A DNA stretch of 50,109 nt. Origin: Shigella phage pSf-2. Shown in pieces: positions 8,200 through 48,744 of this stretch. Numbering within the stretch: position 1 is the first letter of the stretch; every line of letters starts with the position of its first letter. Under the pieces are notes generated by a model that had not been told where the DNA came from, searched no databases, and saw nothing but the letters and a program-made list of their open reading frames with translations. The stretch lies in the sequence record KP085586; one strand, given 5' to 3'. The position numbers and the translations under genes are program-made.

Positions 8200-8204
8200 A
8201 CAAA

Positions 8205-8247: not shown

Positions 8248-8259
8248 GGAGATCTGGAA

Positions 8260-9217: not shown

Positions 9218-9223
9218 TGCCCG

Positions 9224-9252: not shown

Positions 9253-9257
9253 CTGTG

Positions 9258-9275
9258 TTTAGCAATTCGTGCTAT
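9258..9275 (-). promoter_or_regulatory. 18-bp dyad motif copy (tttagcaattcgtgctat) in operator-like position
   Basis: Lies 6-23 nt downstream of the -10 above and 20 nt before ATG 9296. Confidence 0.65.
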
Positions 9276-9295
9276 TTACTTAAGGAGTTTATATT

Positions 9296-11080: not shown

Positions 11081-11083
11081 TAA

Positions 11084-11110
11084 AAGCCCCGCAATGCGGG
11101 GCTTTTCTTA
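11084..11110. terminator. bidirectional Rho-independent terminator between convergent genes
   Basis: aagccccgc-aat-gcggggctt hairpin with T-runs on both strands. Confidence 0.6.
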
Positions 11111-11527: not shown

Positions 11528-11573
11528 TATTTTCTCCCATAAAATTTATGGGCGACCGAAGCCGCCCGGGTGA

Positions 11574-12221
11574 TTATTCGAAGTTGGTGATTGATTGAGA
11601 TTGTACAGGCTTCGCGCTCGTTGCTTCAACCTGTTTTTTCTGTTCCGGTTGCGCCGGGCGAATACCACGAGCTTTACCGATCTCAAACTTAGCCTTAAGT
11701 GCGTTGTAGTGATCCTGAATGATTGACTTGCTTGCCGTGTCAGTCTGGCGGTAAGCGTTAGCCCATACCTCTTTCAGTGATTCGATATCTTCACACGCAT
11801 CAAGTTCTTTTTTCCAGTCCTTGACAGATTTTACTGCAAGCTGAGCATCGTCATCACTCTGGCTAATCCCCAGCGCCGCAGCGAGTGAGTAACGTCGTGC
11901 ATAAGTCATCGCTGAGCCTACACCTTGAGGATCGCGCTTTGCAATAGGCATCATCATGAAGAATTTGGCCCACTGCCCGGATTTGTGAATCAGCATCGTT
12001 TCAAGATGGAAGGTTGTTTCCGTGCTGGTGTCCAGCATTGATTGCAGGATCATAATATCGTTGTCGGTTAGCGCCGGGCTTACTGCCGCCATCATTGCAT
12101 CAAGAGTTGCGTATGAATTTTTCAGGTGATTGTTTTTAGCGTCCTTCTTTGCTTTCGCGAATTTGTTGCGAGCATTGAACAGTGCAGGAAGGATTTCGTT
12201 TGTTTCTGGTGATAATTGCAT
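11574..12221 (-). CDS. single-strand annealing recombination protein (Erf-like candidate)
   Basis: GSAMTYARRYSLAAALGI segment; between SSB and exonuclease; start moved to ATG 12221 with accaatcaggag SD. Confidence 0.5.
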   Translation of the reverse strand: MQLSPETNEILPALFNARNKFAKAKKDAKNNHLKNSYATLDAMMAAVSPALTDNDIMILQSMLDTSTETTFHLETMLIHKSGQWAKFFMMMPIAKRDPQGVGSAMTYARRYSLAAALGISQSDDDAQLAVKSVKDWKKELDACEDIESLKEVWANAYRQTDTASKSIIQDHYNALKAKFEIGKARGIRPAQPEQKKQVEATSAKPVQSQSITNFE

Positions 12222-12277
12222 CTTAACTTCTCCTGATTGGTGTATGAGGTGCATTATAACACCTCATTAATTATTTG

Positions 12278-12295
12278 TTTAGCTATTTGTGCCGT
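12278..12295 (-). promoter_or_regulatory. degenerate copy of 18-bp dyad motif upstream of TATAAT box for Erf-like gene
   Basis: 14/18 match; minus strand has tataat about 21 nt downstream inside an 8-bp inverted repeat. Confidence 0.3.
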
Positions 12296-36986: not shown

Positions 36987-37044
36987 TTCGATTTTCTCTC
37001 TTCGTTGTCGATGAGGTAACTATATCAAATCACCCCACCGACGT

Positions 37045-37062
37045 TTTAGCAATTCGTGCTAT
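37045..37062 (-). promoter_or_regulatory. 18-bp dyad motif copy (tttagcaattcgtgctat)
   Basis: Overlaps TAG stop of kinase gene; minus strand: 22 nt then tatagt (37019-37024). Confidence 0.7.
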
Positions 37063-37631
37063 TTGTTGATGAACGTGGCGGCTATGTGCTGAGCGGTAAT
37101 TTCTGGATGACCTTCGACAGAAAAGAAGTCACACTCATGATAACCGTTGACACCGATCATATCGTCAAGATAGATATAGTCGCGGCTGTCGTTGTCAAAG
37201 TTGCAACCGTTGCGATGGATTCGACACAGCTTGACCTGGATGTCACCTTCAATCATCTGCAAGATCTCGTCTTTGAATCCACCGTCAGTAAATACCGAAA
37301 GTGAATGCGACTCTTTCACCTTGCTTTCCGCTCGCATACCGAAGAAGCGATTTCCGAACTGCGGCTTGATGACCTCCTCGCTAATCCAGATCATAAACTG
37401 GCGCGGGCTTTTACCGTTCAGGATTGATGCTGGCTCTTCTTTATATCGACGGTCCTCATACAAGAACATGAAATACTCGTAGTTAGCTTCACCCAGGATT
37501 GCCCGGGCAATCTCAAACATTGGCGCTTTGAAGCTGCGTAGCGCTACATGATCGTAAGTGTCAGCCAGGATGCATCCGATAGTGTCCTTTCCTGCGCCAG
37601 GCGCGCCGTTTAAAATGATAGCTGTTTTCAT
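37059..37631 (-). CDS. P-loop kinase (dNMP kinase / polynucleotide kinase-like)
   Basis: N-terminal Walker A MKTAIILNGAPGAGKDT resembling T4 dNMP kinase / Pnk kinase domain. Confidence 0.6.
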   Translation of the reverse strand: MKTAIILNGAPGAGKDTIGCILADTYDHVALRSFKAPMFEIARAILGEANYEYFMFLYEDRRYKEEPASILNGKSPRQFMIWISEEVIKPQFGNRFFGMRAESKVKESHSLSVFTDGGFKDEILQMIEGDIQVKLCRIHRNGCNFDNDSRDYIYLDDMIGVNGYHECDFFSVEGHPEITAQHIAATFINK

Positions 37632-37632
37632 G

Positions 37633-37743
37633 TTAGCATCTCCCTAAAAATAATTTTGCCATATTGATGATAGTGTGATTGATGATTAACAGGATGATAA
37701 CCGTCAATACCGGATGTGCTGCAATAAATTCGTACAGGTTCAT
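37633..37743 (-). CDS. small hydrophobic protein (36 aa, not in ORF track)
   Basis: ATGA overlap with HAD gene stop, TAA 1 nt before kinase ATG; TM segment PVLTVIILLII. Confidence 0.3.
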   Translation of the reverse strand: MNLYEFIAAHPVLTVIILLIINHTIINMAKLFLGRC

Positions 37744-38273
37744 TCATCTACCCCGTGAGATTTTAAATGATTGTGAACGTTATCGCCATAGTCAACTACA
37801 GCGTAAGTGGTTATCCCAAGCGATCGGAATAATGGAATAATTTGCGGCGAGTCATCCCAGGCCGCCAGAATGTTCTCAATACCGATAGCGCGCACCGCCT
37901 CCTCTTTCATCACCGTATCTTTCCGGTTATCGGTGTGCGGACGCATAATCAGGTAATCATATCGCGCACCGTAGCGCTTTAACCATAACTTTGATTCGTG
38001 ACGCACCTCATCACTACGTCCGGTTAAGATAATGACGTGATAACCCGCAGCAAATAATGAGTTCATCACCTCAATAGTGCTCTGAATAGGATCGTCATGA
38101 TTTGCTGCACGGTTAAATTCAGACCAACTTTCCGTAAGGTGCAAATCATTTGTCGGTAGCAAGTGGAGGCGCTTTGAGCCATCGCTAAGCGTTCCGTCAA
38201 AGTCAAAGATTGCTACGCGGCGCGCGCCGAGAAACAGGTTGATTGTCTGGCCCCAAATTGTGATTTTATCCAT
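37740..38273 (-). CDS. HAD-superfamily phosphatase (Pnk 3'-phosphatase / 5'-nucleotidase-like)
   Basis: DxDGT motif FDFDGTL near N-terminus; HAD-like spacing of later Asp residues. Confidence 0.6.
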   Translation of the reverse strand: MDKITIWGQTINLFLGARRVAIFDFDGTLSDGSKRLHLLPTNDLHLTESWSEFNRAANHDDPIQSTIEVMNSLFAAGYHVIILTGRSDEVRHESKLWLKRYGARYDYLIMRPHTDNRKDTVMKEEAVRAIGIENILAAWDDSPQIIPLFRSLGITTYAVVDYGDNVHNHLKSHGVDE

Positions 38274-38476
38274 TATGCTTTCTCCTGTACGCGAATGATT
38301 TTGATGGTTAATTCTTCTTCAACAATTTTGTAGCCGGATGATTCAAATTTACTCTCACGAGTCTGATTGCATGAATCAATAACGACCTGGCTATTCTGAA
38401 TATCGTCAGCCATGCCGATTAGCATGCTAACGATCTGCGTTCTCGTTTCGTTGCTCATTCCGGTAATAGTTTTCAT
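38273..38476 (-). CDS. hypothetical protein (start moved to internal ATG)
   Basis: acgaggaag SD before ATG 38476; track start 38518 lies inside promoter hairpin. Confidence 0.45.
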   Translation of the reverse strand: MKTITGMSNETRTQIVSMLIGMADDIQNSQVVIDSCNQTRESKFESSGYKIVEEELTIKIIRVQEKA

Positions 38477-38532
38477 GATCGCTTCCTCGTTTGTTGGCGT
38501 AGGGGAATCATAGCGCATTCCCCTTGATAGGT

Positions 38533-38550
38533 TTTAGCAATTCGTGCTAT
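38533..38550 (-). promoter_or_regulatory. 18-bp dyad motif copy (tttagcaattcgtgctat)
   Basis: Minus strand: 22 nt then tatgat inside 8-bp inverted repeat aggggaat/attcccct. Confidence 0.7.
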
Positions 38551-38752
38551 TCGTTTTAATGGTGATGCAAAAATAATTTTTTAAGCACGTCACCACGCGC
38601 GCCGAATCGACTTGTGGGAGCCTTAAAATTTCGTGGACCAATTGCACTGCCGAAACCTCAGATTTGTAGTAGTGTGCGATTCTGGAGCTATTTGGGAGCA
38701 TTCCTTCCACTGCATCGCGTGCTGCATCTTCTGCTGTCATGATGGTAGCCAT
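38534..38752 (-). CDS. hypothetical protein; C-terminus encoded by the motif
   Basis: 72-codon ORF ending ...NSTNC* across the motif. Confidence 0.35.
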   Translation of the reverse strand: MATIMTAEDAARDAVEGMLPNSSRIAHYYKSEVSAVQLVHEILRLPQVDSARVVTCLKNYFCITIKTNSTNC

Positions 38753-38855
38753 AAAACACCCTTAAGAGATAATGTCAGGATCAGTAGGCAAAATAGCAAC
38801 TCCTGAAATGATGGCGGCTCGTTATTCCAGTTAGAAAAGTCTGGCATAGTGTTTT

Positions 38856-38893
38856 CTCCAAAAGAAAGGGGAACCGTTCAGAGCCGATTCCCC
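38856..38893 (-). terminator. Rho-independent terminator
   Basis: ggggaa/ttcccc stem with 14-nt loop followed by T-rich run on minus strand. Confidence 0.45.
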
Positions 38894-38900
38894 ATTAGCA

Positions 38901-39539
38901 TTACATGATGAACAACAGCGAAATCGAAGCGACCAAGAGAACAAGAGCGATAGCCAAACCAGACAAATCTGCCTTCTCTTCAAACTTCAGCGCTGGCTTA
39001 CGGTCAACTTCCGACGGCTTGACGTTGTGGATCTTGTTAGCTGCAACATTGCCATTGACGCTGAAAGTGCGCTTGCGCTTCTTGCCGAACGTTGCGAACT
39101 TAGTGCCGCCGCTGTTCCAGCGAAGGCCTTCGCCATTGTGAGTTACGGTTGCAATTCGGTGGCGGCCCGTGTCATCGGTCAGCGCTACAGTGTGCTTTGC
39201 GTGCTCAGTAGGCACGTCGTAGATTTTGCCAACAGTAAATTTTTTGGTGTTATCGCTGATACATTCGAATTTCATAAATTTTACCTCTTTATTATGCAGT
39301 TGGTTGATTGCTTCGATTACGTCGTTAAATTTAACACCATCCACGATCCGATGAAAGATATATTTTGAACTACCGCCATACGGAAGGAAAATTTCCTGAT
39401 ATTCGCGACGACGGACAATGTTCACGTTACTACCGTGCTCATCAGTAATGATGAAGCTGTCATCATTTACGCGAACACCTTTGTAAGTTTTTCCCCACTT
39501 AAAACCAGATCCGCTACTTGATACGCATTCAAATTTCAT
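38901..39539 (-). CDS. tail-anchored membrane protein with two tandem copies of a small Cys-containing domain
   Basis: Repeats MKFECVSSSGSGFKWGKTYKGV and MKFECISDNTKKFTVGKIYDV; C-terminal TM LAIALVLLVASISLLFI. Confidence 0.55.
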   Translation of the reverse strand: MKFECVSSSGSGFKWGKTYKGVRVNDDSFIITDEHGSNVNIVRRREYQEIFLPYGGSSKYIFHRIVDGVKFNDVIEAINQLHNKEVKFMKFECISDNTKKFTVGKIYDVPTEHAKHTVALTDDTGRHRIATVTHNGEGLRWNSGGTKFATFGKKRKRTFSVNGNVAANKIHNVKPSEVDRKPALKFEEKADLSGLAIALVLLVASISLLFIM

Positions 39540-39823
39540 GGTCTAACCTTCCTGTAAGGTTTGATTGATAACATCACGTACTGCGTGAAGTAGCATTCTT
39601 GCTCGTCATACCCGCGATTGATGTATGGCGTCACATCAGTAACATCAGATACCCTGGCGTGAACTTCCCACCCGGTAAACTCATCGCGATCGAACTCGCA
39701 TAGCTCCAGGATATCGCCAGGCTGGAAGTTTCGGTCATTGACGCGGAACTCTGCCGTTTTGGTTCCGTTCATTACTCCGATGAAATGTACCGGGGCGATT
39801 TTTAACTTATGAGTTTTGCTCAT
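39536..39823 (-). CDS. ASCH/DUF3850-like PUA-fold protein
   Basis: N-terminal KLKIAPVHF...GTKTAEFRVNDRNFQPGDIL pattern. Confidence 0.5.
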   Translation of the reverse strand: MSKTHKLKIAPVHFIGVMNGTKTAEFRVNDRNFQPGDILELCEFDRDEFTGWEVHARVSDVTDVTPYINRGYDEQECYFTQYVMLSIKPYRKVRP

Positions 39824-40013
39824 CTTTCTTTACCTCGAATGTCACGTTCCAGAATTTATTGCCGCATGAATGATAGATTACGTCCTGAGACGTGAGTTCG
39901 TGCAATGCGTGCCCGATAATCTCCATTCTGTCGTTCGGTGTCAATCCGCGAAGTGATTCGCGTATGCGTGATGCCTTGTCGTAAATCTGCCACTGAGTGA
40001 GTCGTGTAGCCAT
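39807..40013 (-). CDS. hypothetical protein (start moved to internal ATG)
   Basis: Track start 40055 lies inside promoter hairpin; ATG 40013 follows aaccaatcagag leader. Confidence 0.4.
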   Translation of the reverse strand: MATRLTQWQIYDKASRIRESLRGLTPNDRMEIIGHALHELTSQDVIYHSCGNKFWNVTFEVKKDEQNS

Positions 40014-40079
40014 AGCTGATTTCTCTGATTGGTTGCCGTGCTTCAATAAGGCCACTATATCAAATGGCCTTGCGGAAGG

Positions 40080-40097
40080 TTTAGCAATTCGTGCTAT
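40080..40097 (-). promoter_or_regulatory. 18-bp dyad motif copy (tttagcaattcgtgctat)
   Basis: Minus strand: 22 nt then tatagt inside inverted repeat aaggcca/tggcctt. Confidence 0.7.
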
Positions 40098-40243
40098 CGT
40101 TTAACGCACATCGTTTTTACTTCATATCCGAACGGCTTATTCTCTGCAATTACTTCCCGAGCCTTGTTGCATGATTGCTCACTTTCCATGTATACGTGAT
40201 CCGGCCCAGTGCCCATTAAGATAATCAAAACCCATGCAGCCAT
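40094..40243 (-). CDS. small hydrophobic-N-terminus protein (49 aa, not in ORF track)
   Basis: gaggtg SD; TAATG overlap with upstream gene; TAG stop inside motif. Confidence 0.35.
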   Translation of the reverse strand: MAAWVLIILMGTGPDHVYMESEQSCNKAREVIAENKPFGYEVKTMCVKR

Positions 40244-40749
40244 TATTTCACCTCATAGCGTACAAGTGTTCCGCGCTTAATGCTGATTTCACCTGATACA
40301 GTCTTGTTCTTAAAGCCGCCGTAATGCAACAGGAGAATCACTACGTCATCGTGTACCTCAATAGTTTTAGGCGTTGCGGTAATGTCGGCCCAGGATTCGC
40401 TATCAAGCTGGACACCCTTTAGCGTCGCGCTCAATGGCATGTTCTCGATCTGAGTGCACTGTAGCATTGGCTTGATTTCTGGCTTTGCAGCTTTGAATAT
40501 TGAGCCTTCAATCTTCCAGCTATCATACAAGCTGTAAGCATTCTGATTGCCACTCATAATGTAGTGGTAGTCCTTATTTGGTGAATTTTCTTTATTCACT
40601 TCGTTATGTCTGGCTATAAACCATTCCAGCTTAAGCTGCGACACCTCATCGGTGGCCCACGTACCCTTATCTTCATCGGTGAACGTAATTTCACCACATC
40701 CCAGACTGATAAATTTGATCGGGAATTTGACGTCTTCTAATTTCAACAT
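40243..40749 (-). CDS. hypothetical protein
   Basis: 168-codon ORF, aagagga SD, first gene after promoter at 40806. Confidence 0.55.
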   Translation of the reverse strand: MLKLEDVKFPIKFISLGCGEITFTDEDKGTWATDEVSQLKLEWFIARHNEVNKENSPNKDYHYIMSGNQNAYSLYDSWKIEGSIFKAAKPEIKPMLQCTQIENMPLSATLKGVQLDSESWADITATPKTIEVHDDVVILLLHYGGFKNKTVSGEISIKRGTLVRYEVK

Positions 40750-40805
40750 AACTCTTTCCTCTTAGTTGTTGGCGTGGGGATTATACCAGTCAGGACAAAT
40801 CCCCT

Positions 40806-40823
40806 TTTAACAATTCGTGCTTA
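40806..40823 (-). promoter_or_regulatory. 18-bp dyad motif copy, variant (tttaacaattcgtgctta)
   Basis: Minus strand: 22 nt then consensus tataat inside inverted repeat ggggatt/aatcccc. Confidence 0.7.
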
Positions 40824-41309
40824 GTAAACTAACTCGCACTCAATATCGAACGGCTCGGCGTTACAGTGGAAGAAGCAAAGTGCCTCTTTATTCATCCCGC
40901 CGACAAATCCAACGGCTCGCAACTGCTCATCGTTAACGTATGCCAGGTTGCCAGTAATTCTTTCAAAGTCCACAATAACTGGGAACGTGCGGTTCTCATA
41001 ACCTGGTCGCATCGGGTAGCCGCCATTGTTGAGAAGTCGAACCTTGCGCGGCTTAGGATTTGCTTGGACTTCCCATCCGAAGAAGAACATCGTTCCGTCA
41101 TTCTCGTTAAGGTCAGCCGGACCAAATACAGGGCTAACCGAAAGTCCATAGTCCAGATCGTACACTCCAGCTTTAACCAGATCGTCAACCTTAACGCGGT
41201 AGCCTCCAGTGCTGGAATCGCATTTAACCGCATCAACCACGATAGGGTCTGCTTCCAGGTTTCGGGTAAAGCCTTTGTAACCGCCAGTGCAAAGTAATTT
41301 GATTTTCAT
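40821..41309 (-). CDS. hypothetical protein
   Basis: 162-codon ORF downstream of promoter at 41367. Confidence 0.55.
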   Translation of the reverse strand: MKIKLLCTGGYKGFTRNLEADPIVVDAVKCDSSTGGYRVKVDDLVKAGVYDLDYGLSVSPVFGPADLNENDGTMFFFGWEVQANPKPRKVRLLNNGGYPMRPGYENRTFPVIVDFERITGNLAYVNDEQLRAVGFVGGMNKEALCFFHCNAEPFDIECELVY

Positions 41310-41366
41310 GTTTGTATCCTCGTTCGTTGTCGATGGGGTTACTATATCGCAACCCCGATATTGTGT

Positions 41367-41384
41367 TTTAACAAAAAGTGCTAT
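41367..41384 (-). promoter_or_regulatory. 18-bp dyad motif copy (tttaacaaaaagtgctat)
   Basis: Overlaps TAG stop of 41381..41572; minus strand: 22 nt then tatagt. Confidence 0.7.
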
Positions 41385-41572
41385 TCTTTAATCTCGAAGC
41401 AATCAGTATCTTCGTCGAATATCCAGGGATCGCCATTATCATCAAGCAATGAGATATTCCCGAAGCTGGTTAGTGACGCGTTATAAGGCTTGTTAACGGT
41501 AAAGCACCCTTTAACTTCCTCATCATCACTGCCTTTGAATACTGCAATCATTTGGTGCATAAAATCAGCCAT
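41381..41572 (-). CDS. hypothetical acidic small protein
   Basis: 63-codon ORF, aggat SD. Confidence 0.45.
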   Translation of the reverse strand: MADFMHQMIAVFKGSDDEEVKGCFTVNKPYNASLTSFGNISLLDDNGDPWIFDEDTDCFEIKE

Positions 41573-41581
41573 TGTTAAATC

Positions 41582-41752
41582 CTATTCGCAAGTAATTTCA
41601 TTTGATGTGATTGGTAGCAATACGTTGCCGACCATCATGAACGTAGTAACCTGGTTTCCGGTTTCATGGCATCGCTCTTTTACCTCTCCACAACCGGACA
41701 CCACAAGGATAGCCAGGGCGACCGCCGCCATCATGCAAATAAGAATACGCAT
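41582..41752 (-). CDS. small lipoprotein candidate (start moved to internal ATG)
   Basis: Signal peptide with lipobox VVSGC; track start 41773 is GTG; TGATG coupling with upstream small ORF. Confidence 0.4.
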   Translation of the reverse strand: MRILICMMAAVALAILVVSGCGEVKERCHETGNQVTTFMMVGNVLLPITSNEITCE

Positions 41753-41862
41753 CATTCGAACGCTCCAGCACACAGTAGTAACATGATTACGATCCCGTCA
41801 ATGGCATGACCCATGCAGAAGAACCAGACGGCAGACCATAAGGCAATTGTATTGAAGTTCAT
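41752..41862 (-). CDS. small hydrophobic protein (36 aa, not in ORF track)
   Basis: gaggtg SD, ATGA overlap with upstream gene; hydrophobic LWSAVWFFCMG...IVIMLLLCAGA. Confidence 0.3.
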   Translation of the reverse strand: MNFNTIALWSAVWFFCMGHAIDGIVIMLLLCAGAFE

Positions 41863-42086
41863 TTCAGCACCTCGATCTTGTTGTCACCGATTGAGTTTTC
41901 TACTACCGATTGCGGGTCATCGCCAGGAACGCGCATGTAGAAATTACTAACCGCCGTGAAGTTCCATTGACCGCGCCACTTGAAATAGACTCCGTGCTTT
42001 GCGCCCATGGCGTAGTGAGTTGATTTTGCCGGGATCATGTGCCCGTTGACTCGGGTTAGTTGAGTTAGGTTGCTGTAACGTGGCAT
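41859..42086 (-). CDS. hypothetical protein
   Basis: 75-codon ORF in coupled operon. Confidence 0.5.
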   Translation of the reverse strand: MPRYSNLTQLTRVNGHMIPAKSTHYAMGAKHGVYFKWRGQWNFTAVSNFYMRVPGDDPQSVVENSIGDNKIEVLK

Positions 42087-42091
42087 GATTA

Positions 42092-42322
42092 TTACTCCTC
42101 AATTAAAGTGCTGATATCGTCAAAGCCCTGGAGGTCTGCGTTCCAGACTAGGAAGTTTGCAAGGTTTTCGCACCACACCCATTTCCCGTTATCCTCCATG
42201 TATGTTTTGTGCCCACCCGGTACGGCACTGACAGCAAATCGCTTGTTGTCGCGAGTGATGAAAATAGCAAAGCGGTTGTGGCTGGTTGAGTCGATGGCTT
42301 GCTGGTTCTTGACGATTGACAT
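42092..42322 (-). CDS. hypothetical protein
   Basis: 76-codon ORF; accaatcagagg leader before ATG 42322. Confidence 0.5.
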   Translation of the reverse strand: MSIVKNQQAIDSTSHNRFAIFITRDNKRFAVSAVPGGHKTYMEDNGKWVWCENLANFLVWNADLQGFDDISTLIEE

Positions 42323-42386
42323 GGTGATTCCTCTGATTGGTATCTCGTTTCGATGGGGTAACTATATCAAGATACCCCGATTCGTT

Positions 42387-42404
42387 TTTAACAATTCGTG
42401 CTAT
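42387..42404 (-). promoter_or_regulatory. 18-bp dyad motif copy (tttaacaattcgtgctat)
   Basis: Overlaps TAG stop of 42401..42871; minus strand: 22 nt then tatagt flanked by ggggta/tacccc. Confidence 0.7.
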
Positions 42405-42871
42405 TTGGTGAGATATTTCACACAGCTTCCGGCAGTCTCATTCCAGCCATCCTCAAAGAATACGCCATAGCAAGTTGTCGAACGCTGGCGAACCTTCGAC
42501 ACAGTGCGCCACACTTTACGGCCCGAGTAACCAGTCAGCACACGCATCCCCGGCAACAACTCACCAGCCTTTCTCACCTCAATGGTCACATCAGAACCAA
42601 GCTCGAAAGACTCAAGGAAAACCGGGTCAATCATATCACACATGCGGCGCTCTTCATGCCCATCGTGCCACTCGCCACCATCTCTTAATTTAACATGCTC
42701 AATAAATCGACTAAGTTTTTCAGTGATCGAGTCGCAGGCGTAGGAGTTGATATCGATAACCGTGTAGCGACTGTACATATGCCAGTGCGATCCGGTTTTA
42801 TGCTCGAACGCGAATAATGACATAGCGCCGTCAACATTATCTTTAGCAAGAAATACGGTAATGGTCGCCAT
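42401..42871 (-). CDS. hypothetical protein
   Basis: 156-codon ORF, agagg SD. Confidence 0.55.
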   Translation of the reverse strand: MATITVFLAKDNVDGAMSLFAFEHKTGSHWHMYSRYTVIDINSYACDSITEKLSRFIEHVKLRDGGEWHDGHEERRMCDMIDPVFLESFELGSDVTIEVRKAGELLPGMRVLTGYSGRKVWRTVSKVRQRSTTCYGVFFEDGWNETAGSCVKYLTK

Positions 42872-42873
42872 GA

Positions 42874-43068
42874 TTAAGCCTCTGCAAAGTAAGTGTTAAA
42901 GCCTTTGAGTTTGTAGTCGCTACCTACGCGCACAACATTCCAGGTAAGGCCAGAGTGATACGCCACCATATCTTCCAGGTCGATTGTGATTTCAGTTCCT
43001 TTCTTGAACAGACCCTTTTCATGGGTTGAGTCCCGCTGAACAACCACTACGTCAATTTGCGTTTCCAT
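42874..43068 (-). CDS. hypothetical protein (start moved to internal ATG)
   Basis: agagga SD before ATG 43068; track start 43134 lies inside the motif. Confidence 0.45.
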   Translation of the reverse strand: METQIDVVVVQRDSTHEKGLFKKGTEITIDLEDMVAYHSGLTWNVVRVGSDYKLKGFNTYFAEA

Positions 43069-43126
43069 CTTTGTTTCCTCTGTATCGTTTCGATGATAAG
43101 ATAATACCCGATCCGCTAGACCGGGC

Positions 43127-43144
43127 TTTAACAAAAAGTGCTAT
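43127..43144 (-). promoter_or_regulatory. 18-bp dyad motif copy (tttaacaaaaagtgctat)
   Basis: Overlaps TAG stop of 43141..43461; minus strand: 22 nt then tattat. Confidence 0.7.
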
Positions 43145-43461
43145 TCTACGGTAAACTCGACGTCGGTGATTTTCCACCCCTCAGTCTTGGGAGTGGTGAG
43201 GTTCTCAATTTCAAGAATGTTACCCTCAACCTTGAGGAATTTTAGATCTTGCCCACTTATTTCACGCAACTTACCTACGAGCATTCCAGCGTTTAGTCTT
43301 ACGACGCTCTCATCGAATCCTTTTGTGAAGTATCCTGGGCCAACGGTATCAAGGTTTATCTTGATTGACCTCTTACCAATCAGTGCGTCAGCTATCTTCT
43401 TGATGTTTTCCTTCTGCTTACCAATTACCTTACGCCCTTCTTCTGTTAACGGTTTAAACAT
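43141..43461 (-). CDS. hypothetical protein
   Basis: 106-codon ORF. Confidence 0.5.
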   Translation of the reverse strand: MFKPLTEEGRKVIGKQKENIKKIADALIGKRSIKINLDTVGPGYFTKGFDESVVRLNAGMLVGKLREISGQDLKFLKVEGNILEIENLTTPKTEGWKITDVEFTVE

Positions 43462-44818: not shown

Positions 44819-45519
44819 AGTTGATTTGGTCGCTATTCGACGGTTCCGGCCTGGCAGGTCATGAACTGGCAAAGCAAGGTCATAAGGTGATGTGCTTCAA
44901 CTTTGACGGGGCAGATCACGGAGATTACGCAAAGTACAATGCCCGGGTAGAGCATCCGAACATTGAGTATGTGAACGTCTTCATTGATGAGAAGTTCGAA
45001 CGTGATGCGATCGCTGGTGTGTATGGCAAACCTGATTTCATCATGGCTTTCCCACCATGCACTGACCTAGCTGTTAGTGGTGCTCGCCATTTTGCCAGCA
45101 AGCGTGAACGTGATCCGTTATTCCATGAGAAGGCTGTTGCCACCGCTCGGATTGCTGCTAATATTGGCGAAGCTATGGGCGTGACGTACATCATTGAGAA
45201 TCCGGTTAGCGTCCTGTCATCTGCCTGGAGAAAACCAGATCACTCCTTTAATCCCTGGGAGTATGGCGGCTATCTTCCTGAGAATGACTCACATCCCTGG
45301 TTCCCGATGTATATTGCGCCGCGCGATGCTTACCCTAAGAAGACGTGTCTTTGGACCTCGGACGATTTTGTCATGCCGGAGAGAAATCCAGTAAGCCTGC
45401 CTGACGGGTACTCTGCACAGCAAAACAAGCTGGGCGGCAAGTCTGCCAAAACTAAGCTGATACGATCCCTGTCGCCGCGTGGATTTTTCAAAGCGATCGC
45501 AAATAGCACTTTTTGTTAA
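44815..45519 (+). CDS. minimal C5-cytosine methyltransferase-like protein
   Basis: Motif I-like LFDGSGLAG, PC motif FPPCTDLAVSG, ENV-like IIENPVS with canonical spacing; only 234 aa; aaggag SD. Confidence 0.5.
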   Translation: MKLIWSLFDGSGLAGHELAKQGHKVMCFNFDGADHGDYAKYNARVEHPNIEYVNVFIDEKFERDAIAGVYGKPDFIMAFPPCTDLAVSGARHFASKRERDPLFHEKAVATARIAANIGEAMGVTYIIENPVSVLSSAWRKPDHSFNPWEYGGYLPENDSHPWFPMYIAPRDAYPKKTCLWTSDDFVMPERNPVSLPDGYSAQQNKLGGKSAKTKLIRSLSPRGFFKAIANSTFC

Positions 45520-45520
45520 A
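45503..45520 (+). promoter_or_regulatory. 18-bp dyad motif copy (atagcactttttgttaaa)
   Basis: Encodes C-terminal ...NSTFC* of upstream gene; 22 nt then cataat. Confidence 0.7.
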
Positions 45521-45579
45521 ACTCGATCGGTGTGATTTGGCATAATTACCTCATCGAAACGAGATTGAGGAAAAACAAA

Positions 45580-45765
45580 ATGGCACGTCGCATCACTAAA
45601 GACCTTAAAGTCCTGAACAAAGAAAACGTAGTTAAAATTCTGGTTATTTGGGGTTACAACGAAGAATCAGCAAAGCATAAGGTAGAAGCGGGTTACGACC
45701 TGGCTGTCAAGGCAATGCCTAACGACGACGCCAAAGGCATTGTAAACTATGTAGCATTCTTTTAA
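45580..45765 (+). CDS. hypothetical small protein (start moved to internal ATG)
   Basis: gagga SD before ATG 45580. Confidence 0.45.
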   Translation: MARRITKDLKVLNKENVVKILVIWGYNEESAKHKVEAGYDLAVKAMPNDDAKGIVNYVAFF

Positions 45766-45780
45766 TTAACGGGCTAACAA

Positions 45781-45966
45781 ATGAAAACGAAATTAGTGCA
45801 TAAATCAGAAATCAAGATCGGCGATACTGTGATTCACAACGGAGAGCTTAGAACAGTTGGTAAGGAGTCAATAAGCAGAGATGAATTTATGGGGTTATTG
45901 TTGTTCGGCGACTCCTATCGCCTGGGGTGCAAAATGGTTGAGCTTGTTGAGGAAGTAAAATTCTAA
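45781..45966 (+). CDS. hypothetical small protein
   Basis: 61-codon ORF, weak SD. Confidence 0.4.
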   Translation: MKTKLVHKSEIKIGDTVIHNGELRTVGKESISRDEFMGLLLFGDSYRLGCKMVELVEEVKF

Positions 45967-45984
45967 ATAGCACGAATTGCTAAA
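45967..45984 (+). promoter_or_regulatory. 18-bp dyad motif copy (atagcacgaattgctaaa)
   Basis: Starts right after TAA of upstream gene; 22 nt then cattat; leader shared with copy at 5207. Confidence 0.7.
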
Positions 45985-46048
45985 CATGCCGGAATGGAAT
46001 CTGGCATTATTACTTCATCGAAACGAAACATCAAAACAGGAATCGGAA

Positions 46049-46231
46049 ATGAAAAAGTTAACATCAAACACAAAATATGAAATTATTGACGGTGAAGCTA
46101 TTATTTATGCTCGCGCGAAAGGATCAAATAAACTAACAGCCGCATTCAAATGCCACCCAGCGACAATTGATCTCATCAAAGAGTATGGATTCAAGTCGGC
46201 TATAAGCAAGTCGTTATTATGCAAGGCTTAA
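46049..46231 (+). CDS. hypothetical small protein (start moved to internal ATG)
   Basis: aggaa SD before ATG 46049; track start 45977 lies inside motif. Confidence 0.45.
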   Translation: MKKLTSNTKYEIIDGEAIIYARAKGSNKLTAAFKCHPATIDLIKEYGFKSAISKSLLCKA

Positions 46232-46300
46232 CGCTTTGGGTAAAAATATAAACAATGACACACAATACTATAAGTGGGATCTCGTAAAATATTTATCAAA

Positions 46301-46318
46301 ATAGCACGAATTGCTAAA
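46301..46318 (+). promoter_or_regulatory. 18-bp dyad motif copy (atagcacgaattgctaaa)
   Basis: 22 nt (with hairpin ccccga/tcgggg) then tatagt; caaccaatcaggag leader to ATG 46377. Confidence 0.7.
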
Positions 46319-46376
46319 CGCCCCGAAGGGAATCGGGGTATAGTAAACAACATCAACCAATCAGGAGAATCGCCAG

Positions 46377-46607
46377 ATGGCAATCAAACATCCCGGATTA
46401 AAGAAAGCAATCCAGCGAGCCAATGACGAGGGATTTATTGTATATCGAACACATTACGGTCACATGGGTGGACTTAAAGAGCATCATACAAAGGTTGAGC
46501 TTGTGGACTTATGGGAGGATTACGATACATTCCAGTACATCGCCACGTCTGACGTAGAGGCGCAAGTGAAATACATCAATGACACTATTGATAGCTTCAG
46601 AGGGTAA
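46377..46607 (+). CDS. hypothetical protein
   Basis: 76-codon ORF with aggag SD. Confidence 0.5.
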   Translation: MAIKHPGLKKAIQRANDEGFIVYRTHYGHMGGLKEHHTKVELVDLWEDYDTFQYIATSDVEAQVKYINDTIDSFRG

Positions 46608-46611
46608 TTAT

Positions 46612-46983
46612 ATGTTTAAGCAGTTCACAGATCTGGACTTCTCAGCCAGCACGGCAATCAAGACTGACGAGAAAGAAAGCGTAGCGATCGAGAACATCGC
46701 GCGCAAGATTTACAACAAGCAAGAGAAGGCCGTTAGAGCCGCTCTGAGCGCTTATTACGGTGTAAGTGATGCAATGGAGTGTGTTAGCAGGGTAACGCGC
46801 GTAGTGGACAGTTCTGGCGCGCCTCGTTTCGTAGATGACGATACTGGCGAGACAATCATTCAACTTAACAATCCATCCATGCGCACAGAGTTAGGAAACG
46901 TCGCATTGTGGGGCGTGGCTAACTACTCAATCACCGTCAATTCCTGCATTGCGCACCGTGTTAAGGAGGCATTGTATGAGTGA
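46612..46983 (+). CDS. hypothetical protein (start moved to internal ATG)
   Basis: ATG 46612 five nt after upstream TAA; track start 46579. Confidence 0.5.
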   Translation: MFKQFTDLDFSASTAIKTDEKESVAIENIARKIYNKQEKAVRAALSAYYGVSDAMECVSRVTRVVDSSGAPRFVDDDTGETIIQLNNPSMRTELGNVALWGVANYSITVNSCIAHRVKEALYE

Positions 46984-47176
46984 TAATATTTACCGCGTAG
47001 TGGCGATCTCACGCAAGACGCAAAAGAGCGTAGTTGCCTACATGGGAAATAGCGCCATTGAGGCAACAGACGACTTCGAGCTACTGAAGAATAACGAAGG
47101 ATTTATGAACACGTTCCGCGTTCGACTTGAGCGTCTCGAACCTGTTATAATTGATGAAGCGCGAAAGCTATCCTGA
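46976..47176 (+). CDS. hypothetical small protein (start moved to internal ATG)
   Basis: aaggagg SD before ATG 46976; overlaps upstream TGA. Confidence 0.45.
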   Translation: MSDNIYRVVAISRKTQKSVVAYMGNSAIEATDDFELLKNNEGFMNTFRVRLERLEPVIIDEARKLS

Positions 47177-47192
47177 CTGGTTAGGGGGAATA

Positions 47193-47513
47193 ATGAACCA
47201 CACTTATAAAATCACAACGAAATCACCGAAGATTAACGGAAGCACGGTCGCGGCATTGAATAACGCGGCAGCAATCCACGAAAAAAACATCATGGAGCGC
47301 GTGAAGGCGGCAGTAGGCCGATTCTATGGAATCAACGCTGATATTGCCGACAGCAAGCGACTGTTCAAATACGTGCCAGGTCATCCATATAGCCGGATGA
47401 TCGATATTAAGCATGATAAAGAACTGGTTCGAATCGGATCGCTTAGCATTGACGAGTTCGACCATAGCATTAACCTTGTGACGGCGTATCAAACATGGGA
47501 CGGTAAAAAATGA
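47193..47513 (+). CDS. hypothetical protein (start moved to internal ATG)
   Basis: aggggg SD before ATG 47193. Confidence 0.5.
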   Translation: MNHTYKITTKSPKINGSTVAALNNAAAIHEKNIMERVKAAVGRFYGINADIADSKRLFKYVPGHPYSRMIDIKHDKELVRIGSLSIDEFDHSINLVTAYQTWDGKK

Positions 47514-47653
47514 TTTATATTCACACTTTCTATACTGGCAAATTTAACAGCGTAAAAAATGTTCGCGTTTACGATAGCCACCAAAAAGCAATGATGCAGA
47601 AAGTAGTTCTAGGTGGAACAATCAAAGAGTGTAAAGTAATTTCCGAGTACTGA
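47510..47653 (+). CDS. hypothetical small protein (47 aa, not in ORF track)
   Basis: ATGA overlap with upstream stop; TGA merges into next motif copy. Confidence 0.3.
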   Translation: MIYIHTFYTGKFNSVKNVRVYDSHQKAMMQKVVLGGTIKECKVISEY

Positions 47654-47670
47654 TAGCACTAATTGCTAAA
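47653..47670 (+). promoter_or_regulatory. 18-bp dyad motif copy (atagcactaattgctaaa)
   Basis: -10-like gtatat/tatatt at 22-23 nt; 60 nt upstream of ATG 47731. Confidence 0.6.
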
Positions 47671-47730
47671 GACAATAAATAGGGAGTAAGGTATATTACT
47701 CCAACACCAAACGAAATAAAGGAATTAAAA

Positions 47731-47955
47731 ATGAGTATTAAAGTTGAGAATATCATCAAGCATCTGAACGCGAAAGGACGTGTAGTTATCAAAATGGATA
47801 AGTCTTCCGGTTTTGTTTCAATGACGGTAACTAAGGCTCGGAACGGTAATAACGTTATTGGCAGCACACCAGGATCGCGCTTAGTAAATGCAACAGATGC
47901 GGATGTTCGCGCAACGCTTGAGGCTAACTCGATTTACATTAATTCATGGGGCTAA
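47731..47955 (+). CDS. hypothetical small protein
   Basis: 74-codon ORF with aaggaa SD. Confidence 0.5.
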   Translation: MSIKVENIIKHLNAKGRVVIKMDKSSGFVSMTVTKARNGNNVIGSTPGSRLVNATDADVRATLEANSIYINSWG

Positions 47956-47958
47956 TTA

Positions 47959-48171
47959 ATGGAACAGGATAATTTCTGGACTCGTTATTTTGCCGCGCTC
48001 GATGCCGGGCTTAGTGCGGAATGGTGTATCAAGGTTGCATATAAAGAAATTACGCTTGACGACGCACTAGGGAATATGGATATGGACGCAGAAAGTGAAT
48101 ATAATCCCGACTTCGAGATGCCCGGCGATGATATTGGTGATAATGACGACGACGATTATATTCCCTGGTAA
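47959..48171 (+). CDS. small highly acidic protein (DNA-mimic candidate)
   Basis: C-terminal third about 50 percent Asp/Glu (DFEMPGDDIGDNDDDDYIPW). Confidence 0.45.
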   Translation: MEQDNFWTRYFAALDAGLSAEWCIKVAYKEITLDDALGNMDMDAESEYNPDFEMPGDDIGDNDDDDYIPW

Positions 48172-48189
48172 ATAGCACGATTTGTTAAT
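48172..48189 (+). promoter_or_regulatory. 18-bp dyad motif copy, variant (atagcacgatttgttaat)
   Basis: Starts right after TAA of upstream gene; 22 nt then taaagt; aaccaatcaggag leader. Confidence 0.6.
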
Positions 48190-48251
48190 ATTGCCGTAAG
48201 GTCATTTGATAAAGTGGCCTTATTCAAGATAACCAATCAGGAGTGAACGCA

Positions 48252-48668
48252 ATGAAATCCATCAAACTTAAATGTACTTCCGCAGACAAAATCACAGGAT
48301 TTGAAGTTAACAACCTTTACAAAGGTCGAGAGCGCTACGATGGAACTCGTGAGGTTAAGTTAAAGTGCGGTAAGTATTTAAAACTTGATAAGCATGATGA
48401 ATTACAGATTCACGGATCTGATGAAATCTTCTTCGCAAAATTCACTGAACTTAAAACCAAAACACTCAAGTGTACCGGGCTTGACCATCGCAACACAATG
48501 AAAAAATCATTCAAAGTTGGCAAGCGTTACCAGGTGGAAAGCGGTCGTGCTCTCGGTGGAGTGGCTGGTTACATCTTTGATGAGGACGGTTGCCGCTGGA
48601 CATTATTCCGCGAAGAGGTTGGTTTTAGTATTGCTGACGGCACAACCTTTGAGGCCAAATACTTATAA
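48252..48668 (+). CDS. protein with tandem small Cys-containing repeats (start moved to ATG 48252)
   Basis: aggag SD; track start 48243 is GTG; repeats KLKCTSADKITGFEV / TLKCTGLDHRNTMKKSFKVGKRY resemble those in 38901..39539. Confidence 0.5.
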   Translation: MKSIKLKCTSADKITGFEVNNLYKGRERYDGTREVKLKCGKYLKLDKHDELQIHGSDEIFFAKFTELKTKTLKCTGLDHRNTMKKSFKVGKRYQVESGRALGGVAGYIFDEDGCRWTLFREEVGFSIADGTTFEAKYL

Positions 48669-48671
48669 CCA

Positions 48672-48689
48672 ATAGCACTTTTTGCAAAA
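48672..48689 (+). promoter_or_regulatory. 18-bp dyad motif copy (atagcactttttgcaaaa)
   Basis: 22 nt then tatcat (48710-48715); aaggag SD and ATG 48745 follow. Confidence 0.65.
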
Positions 48690-48744
48690 CGCGTGTACCA
48701 TTGGCGGTGTATCATTCACACCGTCAACTAAGGAGTTTATTGTG

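Follow-up and report, generated by a model that had tools for sequence, protein, structure and literature searches.

Inverted repeats in the promoter cassettes of Shigella phage pSf-2: sense-strand stem-loops as candidate 3' boundaries of upstream messages

Why do the -10 boxes of early promoters in a phage carry inverted repeats whose arms differ from site to site? An earlier note on Shigella phage pSf-2 (KP085586) listed five GC-rich repeats of this kind, and all five were present where it placed them. The window (the whole stretch analysed, 50,109 nucleotides) is a T1-like phage genome of the Drexlerviridae, and the genes at 36-44 kb all lie on the minus strand, so the elements there were read on the sense strand. 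The inverted repeats belong to about 25 repeated intergenic cassettes, each ordered as stop codon, 20-bp direct repeat (hereafter the box), 18 bp, extended -10, leader of about 30 nt and ATG.

Cassettes and hairpins in the window

The 20-bp box has the consensus aATAGCACnnnTTGYTAAAAn and contains the stop codon of the upstream gene. The extended -10 (TGnTAnnnT) is followed by about 6 nt to the inferred start and then by the leader with its Shine-Dalgarno sequence. The features are as follows, each cassette being called by a box position, which in the leftward arm is the G of GCAC.

36990..43145, minus strand: leftward arm of seven cassettes (37059, 38547, 40094, 40820, 41381, 42401, 43141)
45500..48730, plus strand: rightward arm, cassettes 45506, 45970, 46304, 47656, 48175, 48675
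2160..12295, minus strand: cassettes of the same family, 2210, 4198, 5221, 7730, 12292
38531..38550, minus strand: box of cassette 38547, ATAGCACGAATTGCTAAAAC, a marbox-like 20-bp direct repeat
38501..38524, minus strand: hairpin of cassette 38547, AGGGGAAT (38524-38517) and ATTCCCCT (38508-38501), loop GCGCTATG; brackets TATGAT (38512-38507) and ends at the predicted -1; RNA MFE -12.9, z -3.57
40048..40071, minus strand: hairpin of cassette 40094, AAGGCCA(TT) (40071-40063) and (AG)TGGCCTT (40056-40048), in full AAGGCCATT / AGTGGCCTT; TATAGT (40059-40054) inside; box 40097-40078; MFE -12.9, z -4.14
40776..40804, minus strand: hairpin of cassette 40820, GGGGATT (40804-40798) and AATCCCC (40782-40776), 15-nt loop with TGGTATAAT; -10 TATAAT (40785-40780); box 40823-40804; MFE -14.0, z -2.86
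41335..41356, minus strand: hairpin of cassette 41381, GGGGTTGC / GTAACCCC around TATAGT (41346-41341); box 41384-41365; MFE -14.9, z -4.68
42355..42378, minus strand: hairpin of cassette 42401, GGGGTA(TCT) (42378-42370) and (AGT)TACCCC (42363-42355), in full GGGGTATCT / AGTTACCCC; TATAGT (42366-42361) inside; box 42404-42385; MFE -11.7, z -2.50
46320..46339, plus strand: class A hairpin of cassette 46304, (G)CCCCGA (46320-46326) and TCGGGG(T) (46333-46339); TATAGT (46339-46344) directly after it; box 46301-46320; MFE -12.4, z -2.61
37007..37042, minus strand: hairpin of cassette 37059, 15-bp stem including G·U pairs, GTCGGTGGGGTGATT / AGTTACCTCATCGAC; TATAGT (37024-37019) inside; box 37062-37043; MFE -22.4, z -6.67
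43106..43126, minus strand: class A hairpin of cassette 43141, GCCCGGTCT / GGATCGGGT, entirely within the 18-bp gap and ending on the first base of the -10 TATTAT (43106-43101); box 43144-43125; MFE -13.5, z -3.97

RNA folding z-scores at ten window sites ranged from -2.5 to -6.7. The earlier note had missed the hairpins of cassettes 41381, 37059 and 43141 and further sites at 4182-4161, 2192-2175, 5204-5185, 12267-12244, 7715-7678, 45986-46007, 47683-47702, 48196-48223 and 48701-48727. In cassette 4198 the box is the exact consensus marbox GCACTAATTGCTAAA, followed by a hairpin with a GAAA tetraloop, and over 200 distant Drexlerviridae with non-matching flanks share the element of cassette 40094 at 89-98% conservation.

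The 22-bp spacer described earlier stands as the distance from TTGYTA to the -10-like hexamer (of 495 unique elements, 328 have exactly 22 bp and another 42 have 21 or 23 bp), but not as a -35/-10 spacer, because TTGYTA belongs to the marbox-like box and is no -35 hexamer. The claimed conservation of geometry held only loosely, with two placements and several registers. In class A both arms lie within the 18-bp gap, starting 16-22 nt ahead of the hexamer and closing on short GNRA or UUCG loops. Class B hairpins place the 5' arm in the gap, often starting 10-12 nt ahead of the hexamer, and the 3' arm in the 6-nt stretch past the -10, with the -10 inside the loop. With box and -10 fixed, the hairpin occupies the sole free sequence. 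Among 296 hairpins, 3'-arm ends peaked at the first -10 base and 6 nt past the -10 (84/296); the 3' arm ended ahead of the predicted +1 in 77%, usually at -1. The hairpin was weak or absent in about 19% of elements.

Conserved pairing on the sense strand

The family sample consisted of 366 non-redundant cassettes or homologous regions from 128 loci. The mean MFE of the sense strand was -12.0 kcal/mol in these regions, against -6.4 for dinucleotide shuffles, and complementarity was kept across 185 distinct arm pairs. Native elements folded about 5-7 kcal/mol better than chimeras made from the 5' half of one element and the 3' half of another (class B, -14.6 vs -7.6; class A, -12.5 vs -7.4). In one register, seven pairs exchanged GC, AU, CG, UA and GU with pairing retained; because the sequences of this alignment (A1) had been picked for having a stem there, its percentage of paired cells is inflated. 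The covariation score in this register was 0.418, compared with 0.170 for shuffles (0 of 500 reached it) and at most 0.186 for slid partners. No covariation was seen in fixed columns across the whole family, and syntenic orthologues in close relatives were nearly invariant; the covariation stems from paralogues and distant homologues. The structural selection suggested in the earlier note is thus borne out by the arm pairs, the chimera control and the covariation.

Of the 366 regions, 246 were more stable when folded as the sense strand than as the antisense strand. Stem mismatches among distinct hairpins were G·T in 47 cases and A·C in 4 (10:0 in class A, 34:4 in class B), and tetraloops were GNRA or UNCG in 16/31 on the sense strand but in 1/31 when read as antisense, with UUCG-type loops making up 6/31. 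Together with the fold excess and the 185 arm pairs, the G·T bias and these sense-only loops point to a sense-strand RNA stem-loop and not to an operator or cruciform. Were replication to begin near 44 kb, in the divergent region, the sense strand would serve as the lagging-strand template as well; an asymmetry between strands is by itself compatible with a role as single-stranded DNA, and what argues for RNA is the enrichment of UUCG.

This bears on a promoter element acting as DNA, in which a cruciform or a non-template-strand hairpin, extruded in supercoiled or melted DNA, would tune open-complex formation or activator action at the cassette's own promoter. The arms do flank or abut the melting region with the -10 in the loop, the class B 3' arm coincides with the GC-rich stretch between -10 and start, and GAAA loops stabilise DNA hairpins as well. 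MarA is also able to distort base pairing beside its site at another promoter (PMC12781870). However, a cruciform requires pairing on both strands, which the mismatch bias contradicts, and class A hairpins lie entirely upstream of the melted region. UUCG-type loops are extra-stable in RNA but not in DNA, and hairpin strength follows the presence of an upstream co-directional ORF (see below), a link not expected of a role confined to the promoter itself. We regard such an element as unlikely, though it survives better than the other alternatives.

Start site, read-through and gene modules

The earlier note allowed for an RNA hairpin if transcription starts further upstream; the RNA hairpin is upheld, but nothing suggests an upstream start. 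Columns -14G, -11A and -7T, which lie in the loop or beside the stem, were invariant in alignment A1, by which the predicted -10 is judged genuine, and the box occupies the position of a class II activator site. From these two facts we infer a start just past the 3' arm. Because most 3' arms stop at -1, transcripts from the cassette's own promoter would lack the hairpin and only read-through transcripts from upstream would carry one. We found no T1-like phage with mapped 5' or 3' transcript ends in the literature, so both the start site and read-through are deduced from these features. Elements with an abutting upstream ORF of 50 codons or more in the same direction folded better than the others (-13.1 vs -9.4, p = 3.5e-7), and the stop codon of the abutting ORF was the box TAG in 154 of 234 cases; some elements without a long abutting ORF still had strong hairpins.

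What the comparisons show is a stem-loop with its covariation, strand and position, and a tie to indel boundaries. On balance, we think it probable that the hairpin, lying in the predicted untranscribed part of the cassette, serves as the 3' boundary of the upstream message, and that the cassettes serve as homology patches. Read-through transcripts from an upstream promoter would carry the hairpin directly after the upstream gene's stop codon, where it could act as a partial read-through attenuator, as a barrier to 3'-to-5' exonucleases that fixes and stabilises the 3' end of the upstream mRNA, or as both. Attenuation or 3'-end protection is the most likely activity, and it would insulate each promoter-gene module from its neighbour. 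The conserved cassettes may double as homology patches for gain, loss and swap of modules.

Canonical Rho-independent termination, as annotated in GenBank for phage SA30RD, whose orthologous hairpins are labelled "rho-independent terminator; WebGeSTer/TransTermHP", appears improbable. No U-tract was seen after the hairpins (T-tail score 1.4 in class A, 0.67 in class B, 0.68 at random), which makes efficient intrinsic termination unlikely; only about 5% reached a score of 3. A few family members do have U-tracts (window element 8185; T57 and T62 of phage TLS, beside DR10 and DR12), but a consensus scan found 12 terminator-like sites against 12.3 expected, only two of them cassette hairpins. Elsewhere the phage does have canonical terminators with a U-tract, such as the one at 38893-38868, which scores 3.8.

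The evidence on gene modules came from the following segment and from boundaries between genomes.

42405..43124, minus strand: segment of two genes, ORFs 42401-42871 and 42874-43134, flanked by the direct repeats of cassettes 43141 and 42401

Of these two ORFs, the second has a Pfam match, PF25180. Phage T1 lacks the segment and has a single hybrid cassette there instead of two cassettes and two genes. Boundaries of indels or replacements fell in cassettes in 18 of 108 cases against 8.9 expected (p = 0.004), and cassette 40017-40097 forms a 97.5% island where the flanks on both sides have been replaced. Judged by these comparisons, the cassettes act as recombination joints bordering gene gains and losses. 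The same facts would suit a signal that exists primarily for recombination, with hairpin and box promoting cassette exchange and no role in gene expression. However, in the clear case the crossover falls in the direct repeat and not in the hairpin, no part of the cassette varies more than the arms, which therefore offer little homology, and RNA-specific signatures are unexpected for a DNA recombination site. We give this reading as little credence as canonical termination; a recombination role and an expression role are compatible.

Still slightly less probable is a 5'-terminal stabiliser of the cassette's own mRNA, protecting it from RNase E, with a start upstream of the hairpin (driven, for example, from the box). 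If the box TAAAA were a weak -10, class B 5' arms at 10-12 nt before the hexamer would lie about 7 nt past it, and the sense-strand RNA signatures would fit equally. However, TAAAAn lacks -7T, the -35 distance upstream holds only variable coding sequence with nothing conserved, and such a start would cut class A hairpins. It also leaves unexplained the invariant -14G, -11A and -7T and the exact 18 bp to the box, as at micF. The second operator of the earlier note, which would bind a dimeric repressor or another protein specific for a DNA sequence, is close to refuted: an inverted repeat overlapping the -10 is a classic operator layout, but the 185 arm sequences and loops of 3-21 nt leave no common half-site and the wobble pairs are strand-asymmetric.

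Comparison with known systems

Early promoters of phage N4 also carry an inverted repeat, as DNA hairpins recognised by the virion RNA polymerase, with 5-7 bp stems, 3-nt loops and conserved sequence. N4 needs its phage RNA polymerase, whereas T1-like phages have no gene for an RNA polymerase or a sigma factor, and in the pSf-2 family sequences are variable and loops of 3 nt occur in just 4 of 296 hairpins. The T4 C(UUCG)G hairpins, REP elements and processed Rho-terminated ends are intercistronic and have no U-tract; they define the 3' ends of mRNAs or protect them, and share with pSf-2 short GC-rich stems, often UUCG or GNRA loops, and a place directly past the stop codon. To our knowledge, none of these is embedded in the promoter of the next gene, unlike the hairpins of pSf-2.

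Compared by sequence, the direct repeat equals the published consensus marbox, the binding site of the host stress regulators MarA/SoxS/Rob, in the class II position and orientation found at micF; we found no literature report of this identity. The box of cassette 38547, whose TAG is the stop of ORF 38534-38752, is identical to it at 14/15 positions, and the ChIP-seq consensus 5'-gcactaattgctaaa-3' occurs exactly at 4198 and 47656 and with one mismatch at seven others. The class II MarA/SoxS/Rob/RamA promoters of Enterobacteriaceae (micF, fumC) likewise have the forward orientation, with ACAGCACTGAATGTCAAAAC-N18-TAGAAT at micF against ATAGCACGAATTGCTAAAAC-N18-TATGAT in the phage, and N18/19 at fumC. 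If +1 lies 7 nt past the -10, GCAC occupies -47 to -44 in the phage, which matches the Rob-RNA polymerase-micF structure, with the centre near -41. However, micF and fumC are activator-dependent and have no hairpin in the 18-bp gap, while the phage box is a putative activator site and its near-consensus extended -10s might work unaided. Host marboxes are also degenerate, in contrast to about 25 near-perfect copies in the phage.

The same element is known from phage TLS as a 21-nt direct repeat, aaATAGCACnnnTTGnTAAAA, noted in T1, Rtp and Rogue1 as well (PMC11447400); the consensus, the A/T/G sub-groups, the orientation with transcription and the spacing of about 76 nt from the start codon all agree. 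Its function was left open as stoperator, enhancer site or UP element, and the fixed 18/22-bp distance to the -10, the following hairpin and the marbox identity are absent from that paper (PMC11447400). A listed terminator is adjacent to only 2 of 18 TLS repeats.

Among known systems, the nearest analogue is the PeSL (promoter-early stem-loop) of the T4-like phages RB49/phi1, PST and nt-1 (Arbiol et al. 2010, PMC2839356; Comeau et al. 2014, PMC4122927). The PeSLs belong to T4-like phages and are unrelated in sequence to the cassettes of this Drexlerviridae siphovirus, which lack U-tracts and have, instead of a canonical -35 at 17 bp, the marbox-like box 18 bp from an extended -10. Terminator activity and mini-circles have been demonstrated for PeSLs, and one RB49/phi1 stem-loop reduced expression of a downstream reporter to the same extent as a terminator did (PMC2839356), whereas the activity proposed here is read from the genome. 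Both are repeated intergenic units of about 100 bp running from the upstream stop codon through Shine-Dalgarno sequence and ATG, with the same order of parts in RB49 and phi1 (PMC2839356), and both are concentrated among small genes of unknown function and flank indels.

Cassettes in the window and in the larger sample

The window was essentially a complete genome of a T1-like phage (Drexlerviridae, Tunavirus-like), and its region 38000-43000 was about 88-90% identical to phages LeonhardEuler, SH6, JMPW1, Shfl1, and T1. The genes at about 36-44 kb lie on the minus strand, so the promoters and repeats reported there were read on the minus strand. The earlier note had described five GC-rich inverted repeats around or ahead of the -10 boxes of early promoters, and all five were found in the window where it had placed them. 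A motif search with the conserved upstream motif returned 24 window sites, compared with 4.1 expected, and context extraction gave about 25 intergenic cassettes over the genome. The order within the cassettes was constant: the stop codon of the upstream ORF inside the 20-bp box aATAGCACnnnTTGYTAAAAn, then 18 bp, a TATAAT-like hexamer, a conserved leader (...CATCGAAACGAGG...), and ATG, and nearly all of the window cassettes carried a GC-rich hairpin. The larger sample consisted of seven phage records (six genome-length and one 8.9-kb contig) and 119 motif-containing IMG/VR stretches, which contained 495 unique elements in 1.25 Mb. A -10-like hexamer with A at position 2 and T at position 6 stood exactly 22 bp past TTGYTA in 328 of the 495 unique elements, and 21 or 23 bp past it in 42.

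In most cassettes, the predicted transcripts also shared conserved sequence over their initial 10-15 nt (ATCGAAACGAG / ATCGACAACGA / ACACCAACAA), 5' of the Shine-Dalgarno, and these leader starts could serve in RNA processing or as a signal for translation.

Examples of conserved leaders (most cassettes are alike)
42354-42325, minus strand, conserved leader
41334-41310, minus strand, conserved leader
45553-45590, plus strand, conserved leader

Pairing, strand, and placement of the hairpin

Ten window hairpins folded as RNA had energies of -11.7 to -22.4 kcal/mol, with z values of -2.5 to -6.7 relative to dinucleotide shuffles. Over 366 non-redundant regions covering the gap and the -10, minimum free energies averaged -12.0 kcal/mol for the sense strand and -10.4 for the antisense strand, compared with -6.4 for shuffles. 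The hairpins fell into class A (79 regions), in which the arms lie inside the 18-bp gap with short loops and the 3' arm ends on the first -10 base, and class B (175 regions), in which the -10 is bracketed by the arms. As a control, chimeras were made from the 5' half of one element and the 3' half of another, so that within-element complementarity was lost but position-specific composition, for example the common GGGG...CCCC, was preserved. Native class B regions folded at -14.6 kcal/mol and their chimeras at -7.6, and the corresponding values of class A were -12.5 and -7.4. These statistics count akin sequences as independent, an effect that is reduced and not removed by the use of unique regions and of distinct arm pairs, of which the cassette hairpins had 185.

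Fixed-column covariation over all 322 elements with the 22-bp spacing gave no nested signal, because the hairpin register varies between elements, so per-element stem finding, the chimera controls, and a single-register alignment were used in its place. This gap-free alignment (A1) held 64 elements of one register, which were picked for a stem there and many of which were akin to one another. Seven inner pairs were kept in almost all of its sequences while they alternated among GC, AU, CG, UA, and GU, with both-sided changes in 155 cells. The covariation score was 0.418, compared with 0.170 for shuffled alignments (0 of 500 reached 0.418) and at most 0.186 with slid partners. Among syntenic orthologues in close relatives, which were few, the stems were almost invariant. 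The pairing of the hairpin is under selection, and the structural selection proposed in the earlier note was borne out by the diversity of arm pairs, the energy lost in chimeras, and the covariation in A1. The covariation among homologues by which it was to be checked appeared in the single-register alignment, but not over the whole family in fixed columns or in the near-invariant close orthologues.

Of mismatches with Watson-Crick pairs on both sides, distinct hairpins had 47 G·T and 4 A·C (10:0 in class A and 34:4 in class B). Read on the sense strand, the 31 distinct tetraloops included 10 GNRA and 6 UNCG loops, compared with 1 of 31 in the antisense reading; in RNA, loops of the UUCG type are unusually stable. 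Neither a protein operator nor a cruciform predicts any strand asymmetry, so this wobble and tetraloop bias means that the hairpin is selected in sense-strand RNA. A palindromic operator would also have a common half-site as well as two-strand symmetry, and with so many different arm pairs no half-site was common, so the second operator that had been suggested is not supported. Hairpin promoters of the N4 type combine a 3-nt loop, stems of conserved sequence, and an RNA polymerase encoded by the phage, and the cassette hairpins do not agree with this, since 3-nt loops occurred in only 4 of 296. T1-like phages have no RNA polymerase or sigma gene (PMC11447400). A search of the whole window against Rfam at the gathering score gave 0 matches.

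The 3'-arm ends peaked sharply twice, at 5-6 nt before the hexamer end and at 6 nt past the hexamer (84 of 296), and 77% of the 3' arms finished ahead of a start set 7 nt past the hexamer. Three columns of A1 were invariant, namely the G of TGn (-14), A(-11), and T(-7). Sigma-70 requires these bases in an extended -10, which makes the hexamer a real -10. From this placement, we infer that the cassette's own transcript starts just past the hairpin and that the hairpin is present only in transcripts coming from upstream. Where a co-directional ORF of 50 or more codons ran up to the element, the hairpin was stronger than where none did (-13.1 vs -9.4 kcal/mol, p = 3.5e-7), which is consistent with a hairpin carried by upstream transcripts, and the TAG of the box was the stop codon of the abutting ORF in 154 of 234 elements. 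No 5'- or 3'-end mapping for T1-like phages was found in the literature. In the first cassette of the rightward arm (44599-44660, plus strand), the box TTGCTAA pairs with a downstream TTAGCAA (TTGCTAAcgacTTAGCAA), and this cassette has neither a separate GC-rich hairpin nor a long abutting upstream ORF.

For the upstream message, we favour a role of the hairpin as a partial attenuator and/or a barrier to 3'-exonuclease. Orthologous hairpins are labelled rho-independent terminators (WebGeSTer) in the records of phage SA30RD, and the cassette hairpins have the GC-rich stem of an intrinsic terminator but lack its U-tract. Class A had a T-tail score of 1.4 and class B one of 0.67, compared with 0.68 for random sequence and 3.8 for the phage's own canonical terminator; a score of 3 was reached by about 5% of the hairpins, and a consensus terminator scan picked up just 2 cassette hairpins. 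A terminator on the antisense strand, with the complement of the box AAAA as its T-run, was rejected, since the T-tails scored low in that direction (1.6 and 1.0) and it is the sense strand that has the wobble pairs. The stem-loops called rho-independent terminators in some GenBank records have no U-tract and sit within promoters, which matters for annotation.

Canonical intrinsic terminator of the window
38868-38893, minus strand, GGGGAATCGGCTCTGAACGGTTCCCC then TTTCTTTTGG, after the ORF 38901-39539, without direct repeat

This terminator, which is annotated in SA30RD as well, indicates that the phage employs proper U-tract terminators where they are needed. One family member, at 8185-8260 (plus strand), has a full U-tract hairpin (ACGCGTAG...CTACGCGTTTTTTATTTT) around a weak -10-like TAACAT, and its stem-loop looks like a true terminator.

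The box as a candidate marbox

The box belongs to the published T1/TLS direct-repeat family, a 21-nt repeat whose function was left undecided when it was described from TLS, T1, Rtp, and Rogue1 (PMC11447400). It matches the marbox, the site bound by the MarA, SoxS, and Rob regulators of the host, whose ChIP-seq consensus is 5'-gcactaattgctaaa-3' (PMC5684230). The exact consensus 15-mer was found at 4198 (minus strand, 4182-4201) and 47656 (plus strand, 47653-47672), seven further sites differed by one base, and 26 window sites had at most 3 mismatches, compared with 1.5 in shuffles. The box has the asymmetric 20-bp form of marbox promoters (GCAC, 7 nt, AAA; gcactaattgctaaa), and also agrees with the marbox descriptions gcannwwntgnnaaa (PMC12052159) and CAC(G/T)-7N-AAA (PMC8811837). 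Given the inferred -10 and start, the layout was that of class II: the box is forward, over the -35 position, with its centre at about -41 and 18-19 bp to the -10. Class II marbox promoters have 18-19 bp from the box to the -10 hexamer. This rule was compared with micF and fumC alone: micF in the E. coli genome reads ACAGCACTGAATGTCAAAAC-N18-TAGAAT-N7-(+1), the phage reads ATAGCACGAATTGCTAAAAC-N18-TATGAT, and fumC has N18/19 from box to -10, while sodA as a third check had a box too degenerate for placement. A start 7 nt past the -10 puts GCAC at -47 to -44, which matches the structure of Rob-RNA polymerase-micF (PMC9178005).

Judged by these sequence matches, TTGYTA is the promoter-proximal half of a marbox-like box and not a -35 hexamer. 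The 22-bp spacer of the earlier note, taken as a -35/-10 spacer, does not hold. A canonical sigma-70 reading with TTGYTA as -35 was rejected, since it implies the 22-bp spacer and the promoter scan found 32 sites compared with 26.6 expected and missed the cassettes; no -35 hexamer was found in the canonical scan at 16-18 bp from the cassette -10s. The idea that the box itself forms a small RNA hairpin or a palindromic operator (TAGCA-N5-TGCTA) gave way to its exact match with the marbox, and a sigma-32-like reading of CCCCATCG was dismissed on inspection because its spacing to any CTTGAA-like element was wrong.

Good canonical sigma-70 promoters near cassettes occurred only in 44048-44378 (minus strand), the divergent region between the early arms, and these could be activator-independent immediate-early promoters.

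Canonical promoters of the divergent region
44378-44350, minus strand, TTGTCA-17-TAGAAT
44310-44281, minus strand, TATACA-18-TATAAT
44076-44048, minus strand, TTGACA-17-CACAAT with TG

When E. coli MarA was the tblastn query, the window and six genomes yielded nothing beyond noise (E = 0.47), and Pfam and PHROGs found no MarA-like regulator among ten ORFs from the arms flanking the divergent region (~44 kb), out of a genome with about 70 other ORFs. No link between the marbox and T1-like phages was found in the literature searched; within that scope, the reading of the T1/TLS repeat as a class II marbox is new, and it is the most interesting lead here. A tentative model, to which we give somewhat less than an even chance, is that nearly all non-late promoters of T1-like phages are of the class II MarA/SoxS/Rob(/RamA) type, with a consensus marbox 18 bp 5' of an extended -10 and no -35, and that the nested RNA stem-loop insulates the modules. 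The phage transcription programme would then be wired to the host regulators of antibiotic, oxidative, and bile stress, among which Rob is constitutive and MarA and SoxS are stress-induced. If this is true, the stress state of the host or mutations in rob, marA, or soxS should alter T1-like gene expression and yield. MarA, SoxS, Rob, and RamA drive multidrug resistance, and on this model the 25 or so high-affinity marboxes of each phage genome, whose copy number rises with replication, might titrate these regulators off host resistance genes. The identity of box and marbox offers a cheap and concrete test of dependence on, or response to, MarA/SoxS/Rob/RamA in a phage family that is common in laboratory, gut, and therapy work.

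Box copies also occurred on the plus strand at 24743-24815 and 28508-28560, in intergenic gaps of the minus-strand late (tail/head) genes. The box at 24746 (plus strand) is followed at the usual distance by TACGAT and is opposed by an GGGGGCGCAAGCCCCC hairpin resembling the terminator of the minus-strand gene, and TLS has the same arrangement with DR7 beside T35. An antisense or short transcript could start from these boxes.

Recombination joints and comparison with known systems

The cassette at 40017-40097 had 89-98% identity in more than 200 distant Drexlerviridae (phages of Klebsiella, Salmonella, Citrobacter, and Yersinia), with the flanking genes unmatched. When the early arms of the window were compared with related loci, 18 of 108 homology ends fell within cassettes, compared with 8.9 expected (p = 0.004). 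The plainest example is T1, with a single cassette where the window has the two cassettes whose boxes start at 43141 and 42401. In this hybrid cassette, the upstream flank and the 'TTT'-type repeat match 43141, while the hairpin (GGGGTA/TACCCC), the leader, and the gene match 42401, and the two window genes between the repeats (42405-43124) are missing from T1. At the site of the T1 hybrid cassette, another locus (L113) has duplicated repeats that enclose about 300 bp of additional sequence. T1 also lacks 41387-41581, a deletion bounded by the 5' edge of a repeat, and the homology of all relatives breaks at the start codon after the cassette at 38547.

ORF in the segment that T1 lacks
42874-43134, minus strand, 86-aa ORF, Pfam PF25180 'Phage antiviral trigger protein Gp54' (E = 1e-35)

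Judged by this domain, the phage apparently carries a defence-related accessory gene in cassette form.

In the host fumC promoter (E. coli K-12 fumA-fumC, locus L132), the fumA terminator hairpin with its U-tract comes first, then the marbox, and then the -10, whereas the phage cassettes have their hairpin nested between the marbox-like box and the start. The closest described system is the promoter-early stem-loop (PeSL) of T4-like phages. As in the definition of PeSLs (PMC2839356), the stem-loop lies between the upstream element and the -10 or over the -10 and has G-run/C-run stems with G-T pairs, and the elements border sites where small genes have been inserted, deleted, or replaced in one related phage relative to another. 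PeSLs have a sigma-70 -35/-10 pair at about 17 bp, but in the cassettes only the -10 is present, with TTGYTA 22 bp off. The PeSL stem-loop blocks downstream expression in vivo, one such stem-loop was a strong terminator in a reporter (PMC2839356), and mini-circles arise by recombination between the elements. The T1-like cassettes probably work like PeSLs, with which they share no homology and from which they differ in one defining feature, the canonical -35/-10 promoter. In the PeSL design, a compact cassette serves at once as promoter, RNA stem-loop, and recombination joint, and its presence in T1-like siphoviruses means an origin independent of that in T4-like myoviruses, which argues for a general solution for modular phage genomes.
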